Of a stretch of 64,000 bases of DNA, positions 15,658 to 16,113 are shown piece by piece. The DNA lies in sequence record MK310184; one strand, 5' to 3'. The notes below the pieces were generated by a model. That model saw only the letters and a list, made by a program, of their open reading frames with translations. It did not search any database and was not told the DNA's origin. Numbering within the stretch: the first letter of the stretch is position 1; every line of letters starts with the position of its first letter. The DNA is from Phage NC-G. The position numbers and the translations under genes are program-made.

Positions 15658-16113
15658 TTATTTTAGGTCTTCGGCCCAATCTAGTTTTAAGGGTTCTTTG
15701 TATTCTCTGTCTAAAACAACAGGAATCTGGACATCTCCACTAAAGGTAAGAGGTCCTACATTATAAGACAATGTGATATGAGGGGTATAATCATCAAAAT
15801 CGTGCGTAGCACCTAAGGTACGAGCATACTGATGGCGGCATTTAAGATACTCTGAATCGAGAACCAGTACCAAGACAGGAGAATCACCGTGTTTCCACAC
15901 TTCAAGATGTCCTGACGAAGCAACTTCAAAACTTCCGGATGCAACGGTGTATGGAACGTTGACTCTTGAATAGCAGATTGTAGAATGGAATTTTTCACGA
16001 GGAACTGGATTAGGAACCTTTAAAGTGCGCTGAAGATTTTCCAGCGCATCTAAAGTCAATTCAGAGAATTTTGCAGCAACGTATAGACCTTGAGCAAAAT
16101 CTTCGGTTTTCAT
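15658..16113 (-). CDS. acb1: 2H phosphoesterase, gene 57B (Acb1-like cyclic-oligonucleotide nuclease)
   Basis: 151 aa with two H-x-T/S motifs (H43-STI and H112-ITL); sits directly upstream of 57A as T4 57B does. Confidence 0.75.

Follow-up and report, generated by a model that had tools for sequence, protein, structure and literature searches.

The public records of gene 57B in T4-like phages raise the question of what its product does. RefSeq entries for T4, JS98, JS10, QL01, Bp7 and other phages, together with the PHROG 755 family, name it 'RNA ligase', the GenBank originals name it 'hypothetical protein', and the name Acb1 is used in none of the phage records listed for this gene. The copy described here lies in a 64,000-nucleotide stretch of DNA from Phage NC-G (record MK310184), referred to below as the window. 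An original prediction, made from the letters of this stretch, proposed that the 151-residue product is an Acb1-type 2H phosphoesterase, and that together with two genes for capsid-targeted internal proteins (IPs) it forms an anti-defence neighbourhood.

The reading frame is real and intact: acb1 (gene 57B) occupies positions 15658-16113 on the minus strand, a detail absent from the original prediction, and its 456 nt run from an ATG start through 151 codons to a TAA stop. The product matches the Pfam profile PF23474 (Anti-CBASS protein Acb1) over its entire length (positions 1-144 of 144) with 198.2 bits and an E-value of 6.8e-59, the curated Pfam cut-off for this family being 27 bits, and its best match among solved structures is to Acb1 itself (7T26/7T27, E 3.1e-59), with query residues 9-148 aligned to residues 2-142 of the chain. 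Comparison with T4 gp57B (NP_049750.1, translated from NC_000866) yields 129 identical residues out of 151 (85%) with no gaps (E 2e-100); the T4 protein carries one extra N-terminal Met and is otherwise equal in length, and the C-terminal stretch LDWAEDLK is conserved between the two. NCBIfam holds no model that matches the product, and single-sequence AlphaFold2 gave values too low for use (mean pLDDT 38.4, pTM 0.30); the 2H fold is strongly indicated by the alignment to the 144-residue crystal chain of 7T26. These matches bear out the family proposed for the protein.

By megablast, acb1 is present in 205 phage records, the nearest of which are Dhakavirus members (96-97% nucleotide identity), and phages JS98, IME281, MN04 and JS10 share 95-96% identity with a 22-kb piece of the window. 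Because of these relationships, the window is assigned to a Dhakavirus genome (Straboviridae, Tevenvirinae), that is, to a T4-like E. coli phage. The gp57B proteins of JS98 (99.3% identical) and JS10 each differ from that of the window by one residue, which in JS10 is T67 in place of S67, and the genes that flank 57B in both phages are as in the window phage. On sequence grounds it is thus held with high confidence that the frame is the Dhakavirus orthologue of T4 57B, that it is intact, and that it encodes a functional Acb1.

The name found in public records corresponds to a different reading, in which the product would be a LigT-type 2'-5' RNA ligase or a 2',3'-cyclic phosphodiesterase, with RNA ends as substrate and a role in tRNA or RNA repair. 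The label itself, a phage tRNA cluster near acb1, and the superfamily fold and two HxT/S motifs that the window protein has in common with LigT and the wider 2H superfamily (2_5_RNA_ligase2) all speak for it. However, LigT-type enzymes have RNA ends as their substrates, whereas those of Acb1 are cyclic oligonucleotide immune signals (PMC9117128), and the label is older than the 2022 characterisation, in which T4 gp57B proved to be an enzyme that cleaves cyclic oligonucleotides and that the phage needs against CBASS (PMC9117128). The two Pfam profiles separate the readings: 2_5_RNA_ligase2 (PF13563), whose curated cut-off is likewise 27 bits, reaches 13.8 bits (E 0.061) in a partial alignment confined to residues 69-122, against 198 bits for Acb1, and on these scores an RNA ligase of the LigT type was rejected. 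The residues through which Acb1 specifically contacts its ligand are, in addition, all kept in the window protein. The repair enzyme is accordingly considered extremely improbable, and the 'RNA ligase' label of RefSeq and PHROG is outdated.

The assignment to Acb1 had initially been argued from two H-x-T/S motifs, H43-STI and H112-ITL, which are present exactly as described and are the only motifs of this type in the protein. Since 19% of shuffles of the same product contain at least two HxT/S motifs, the pair by itself is weak evidence, and the identification therefore rests on homology. In T4 Acb1, the HxT/HxT tetrad consists of H44, T46, H113 and T115, and the H44A/H113A variant served as the inactive control; Y12, W74, F107 and W147 are stacking residues, E141 contacts adenine N6, and the C-terminus provides a lid (Hobbs et al. 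2022, PMC9117128). In the ungapped alignment, residue n of the window protein pairs with residue n+1 of T4 gp57B, and because of this constant one-residue offset H43, T45, H112 and T114 can be named as the equivalents of the T4 tetrad; the comparison with T4 that the original prediction had proposed as a check thus places both His motifs on the catalytic residues. All nine T4 functional positions (Y12, H44, T46, W74, F107, H113, T115, E141 and W147) are identical in the window protein, where the ligand contacts are the base stackers Y11, W73, F106 and W146, together with E140 for adenine N6. The Acb1 of Erwinia phage FBB1 (7T26, apo; 7T27, with 3'3'-cGAMP) also keeps the HxT motifs and the Y, F, E and C-terminal W residues, but has one additional residue in the loop that follows the W73 position and employs F in place of W as stacker.

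The residues that do differ from T4 gp57B (22 of 151) are concentrated at positions 2-8 and in the loop 75-80 that adjoins W73, which reads HGDSPV in the window protein and TQDGST in T4. With differences gathered at the N-terminus and beside a base stacker, a shift in substrate preference is possible, and the enzyme could be an Acb1 of drifted specificity whose main targets are unlike those of T4, for example the cA3 of type III CRISPR systems, or a range narrowed in such a way that Panoptes-type guard systems are not triggered. Published work lends some substance to both examples, as Acb1 cleaves cAAA and a role against cA3-signalling CRISPR has been proposed (PMC9117128), and type II Panoptes exerts selective pressure on acb1 in Tevenvirinae (PMC13577387). 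Nevertheless, the known ligand-contacting residues are all unchanged with respect to T4, a change of specificity is unlikely at 85% identity, and the nine further, diverse Acb1 homologues that were assayed were all active and cleaved both 3'3'-cGAMP and cAAA (PMC9117128), so that drift of this kind is judged very unlikely. The more particular idea that the divergent loop HGDSPV might tune the range so as to spare Panoptes decoy nucleotides while still destroying CBASS signals is accorded an equally slight probability.

A functional Acb1 with the substrates of its T4 counterpart thus remains the preferred reading. The description, in the original prediction, of T4 57B as the founding Acb1 that cleaves cyclic oligonucleotides agrees with the literature, in which the enzyme was identified through activity-guided fractionation (Hobbs et al. 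2022, PMC9117128). The same study solved FBB1 Acb1 with 3'3'-cGAMP, revealing a 2H phosphoesterase fold, and documented protection from CBASS in vivo both through the phenotype of T4 delta-acb1 and through Acb1 supplied in trans to phage P1 (PMC9117128); those of its supplementary files that were searched as text contain neither JS98, JS10, Bp7 or QL01 nor the protein accessions. Catalysis, substrate range and in vivo effect on CBASS are inferred for the window enzyme from T4 and FBB1 Acb1. It would be a small, metal-independent 2H phosphoesterase, produced during infection, whose substrates would be CD-NTase signals such as 3'3'-cGAMP, cUA, cAAA and cAAG, cyclic di- or trinucleotides with at least one adenosine that would be bound in a U-shaped pocket. 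The bases would be stacked by Y11, W73, F106 and W146, with E140 reading adenine N6; the enzyme would strain its ligand, and H43/T45 and H112/T114 would catalyse the attack of an adenosine 2'-OH on the 3'-5' phosphodiester bond, leading via a 2',3'-cyclic phosphate intermediate to a linear 3'-phosphate product, without the participation of metal ions. The CBASS effector would then stay unactivated, and the infected cell would avoid suicide. Cleavage by Acb1 is not expected for cGG, cA4 or the 2'-5' bond of 3'2'-cGAMP.

The position of the gene, which had been likened to that of T4 57B, provides a further line of evidence. The order 4-2-3-1-57A-57B-IP-IP-trna.4/.3/.2-tRNAs, all on one strand, matches that of T4, JS10 and JS98, and acb1 is a positional orthologue of T4 57B: it follows 4-2-3-1 and occupies the slot flanked by 57A on the upstream side and by the IP/trna.4 genes on the downstream side, just as 57B in T4 stands after 57A and before internal-protein genes. 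Gene 57A itself, which encodes a tail-fibre chaperone, is at 16113..16358 on the minus strand (Pfam GP57, E 1.7e-28; PHROG 1002) and is preceded upstream by gene 1, for a dNMP kinase (Pfam DNMK, E 3e-90), and then by ORFs syntenic with 3, 2 and 4; downstream, past the IP genes, lie homologues of trna.4, trna.3 and trna.2, followed by tRNA-Met, tRNA-Asn and tRNA-Arg. Homology, the complete set of functional residues, an intact frame and synteny are all direct observations on the window copy.

The TAA stop of 57A shares one base with the ATG of acb1 (TAATG), as compared with an overlap of 4 nt in T4, and this stop/start overlap suggests that the two genes are co-transcribed and translationally coupled. 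Scans with late-motif and sigma-70-like consensus sequences detected no recognisable promoter directly upstream of acb1. The T4 late promoter TATAAATA is absent from that position, its nearest minus-strand copy being located at 19091-19098, ahead of gene 4, and the timing of acb1 expression is therefore inferred from T4. Sigma-70-like matches in the region number 15, where chance alone would give 10.4; those within gene 1 and 57A were considered as promoters for acb1 and rejected, being no better than chance. A putative promoter of sigma-70 or T4-early-like type (TTTACA-17-TATAGT, with a TG element; a consensus match only) was found at 15616..15644 on the minus strand, within the 79 nt that separate the acb1 stop from the first IP gene, and would serve the IP gene rather than acb1.

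The second proposal concerned the surroundings of the gene, in which acb1 was said to lie directly after two capsid-targeted IP genes. This order holds in plus coordinates; in the direction of transcription it is reversed, with 57B preceding the IP genes. The two genes do adjoin acb1, and both encode products that start with MKTYQEFI, an N-terminus of the capsid-targeting type whose counterpart in T4 IPI is MKTFKEF…, and that fall into PHROG families of internal head proteins. The first (15267..15578, minus strand) encodes 103 residues counted from the MKTYQEFI start (PHROG 2667, E 3.8e-41) and shares 51% identity with the internal head protein of the JS98 gp112 type, of which a 99%-identical copy at 1339-1635 constitutes a paralogue within the window. 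The second (14915..15187, minus strand) encodes a 90-residue protein of the Ip9 type (PHROG 7673, E 1.1e-56), and tblastn matches it to annotated ip9. T4, in contrast, carries a single ipI downstream of acb1, and neither of the two window proteins is IPI-like past its N-terminus: in BLASTP comparisons with T4 IPI, one is alike only over the first 9 residues (E 0.015), and the other aligns only in an N-terminal stretch, with gaps and without significance (E 0.006). The two IPs were consequently rejected as orthologues of IPI, the anti-restriction protein that inhibits GmrSD, for want of IPI homology beyond the targeting N-terminus. A remark on an 'anti-defence island' had already been made for T4, where acb1 adjoins ipI (PMC9117128). 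In the window phage the anti-defence neighbourhood is supported by analogy only, given that the IPs beside acb1 are proteins different from T4 IPI.

A 117-nt direct repeat (15158-15274 and 15549-15665, 79% identity) stands ahead of both IP genes, one copy to each, and includes the codons of the targeting sequence, the ribosome-binding region and a promoter match of sigma-70-like type. Because each carries these elements in its repeat, the two IP genes look like self-contained cassettes, and the repeats would fit cassette-like shuffling at the locus. A shorter, related repeat copy, at 14871-14894, precedes trna.4. Across phage records, the 1.8-kb stretch in which the IP genes lie is mosaic, covered to at least 80% in only 45 of 686 matching records, and its best match, 89.8% identical, is in four pieces. 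Once its targeting N-terminus is set aside, the remainder of the Ip9-type protein (residues 17-90) finds a 50%-identical match in OQ696342.1, a 44.6-kb phage record, and a 37%-identical match in PP761450.1, a 149-kb phage record; the circulation of the cargo domain thus extends beyond the T4-like phages. In JS10 (4456-5105) and JS98 (17691-18340), the interval of approximately 650 nt between trna.4 and 57B is unannotated; as it is the slot that the two IP genes occupy in the window, both phages probably carry unannotated IP genes there.

Genes of related types are present elsewhere in the window. Seven minus-strand ORFs begin with the pattern MKTY(Q/K/N)EF(I/L), with starts at 1635, 2457, 3082, 3563, 12662, 15187 and 15578, where 0.01 matches would be expected by chance. 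The ORF that starts at 2457 presumably resembles T4 IPII, the one at 3082 is ipIII, and the one at 3563 encodes 132 residues that match JS98 gp114. The ORF at 12045-12662 encodes 205 residues with an IP-type N-terminus and a middle region rich in Pro, Ala and Lys, and has the late-promoter motif TATAAATA just upstream, at 12691-12698; its apparent JS98 counterpart, by position and length only, is orf135, a 'hypothetical protein'. The vs.8 homologue (651-1223, minus strand) is 42% identical to JS98 Vs.8, whereas its neighbours vs.7, denV and an internal head protein are 98-99% identical, a pattern that points to a locally replaced or fast-evolving gene. At the start of the window, a vs.4 homologue is represented by its initial 41 codons (22-147, minus strand), which are 86% identical to JS98 Vs.4, before the frame runs off the end. 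T4 Vs.4 is the anti-CBASS sponge Acb2. It has been reported that T4 encodes acb2 (PMC12657218), and the window phage probably carries both Acb1 and Acb2, approximately 15.5 kb apart.

The acb1 described here is an already-known gene, an ordinary copy in a close relative of T4 with nothing new about it, and its identification advances no open biological question. The main practical gain is the right annotation, 57B still being called 'RNA ligase' or 'hypothetical protein' in many records. Possession of the gene has a cost: type II Panoptes restricts those Tevenvirinae whose acb1 is intact, and they escape it through mutation of acb1 (PMC13577387); for type I Panoptes (OptSE), acb1 of T4 was dispensable to the defence, although expression of acb1 from a plasmid lowered colony formation in this system (PMC12657218). 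An intact acb1, combined with the apparent acb2, predicts that the phage would resist many CBASS operons and would be sensitive to type II Panoptes guard systems, and these predictions bear on the choice of phages for therapy.
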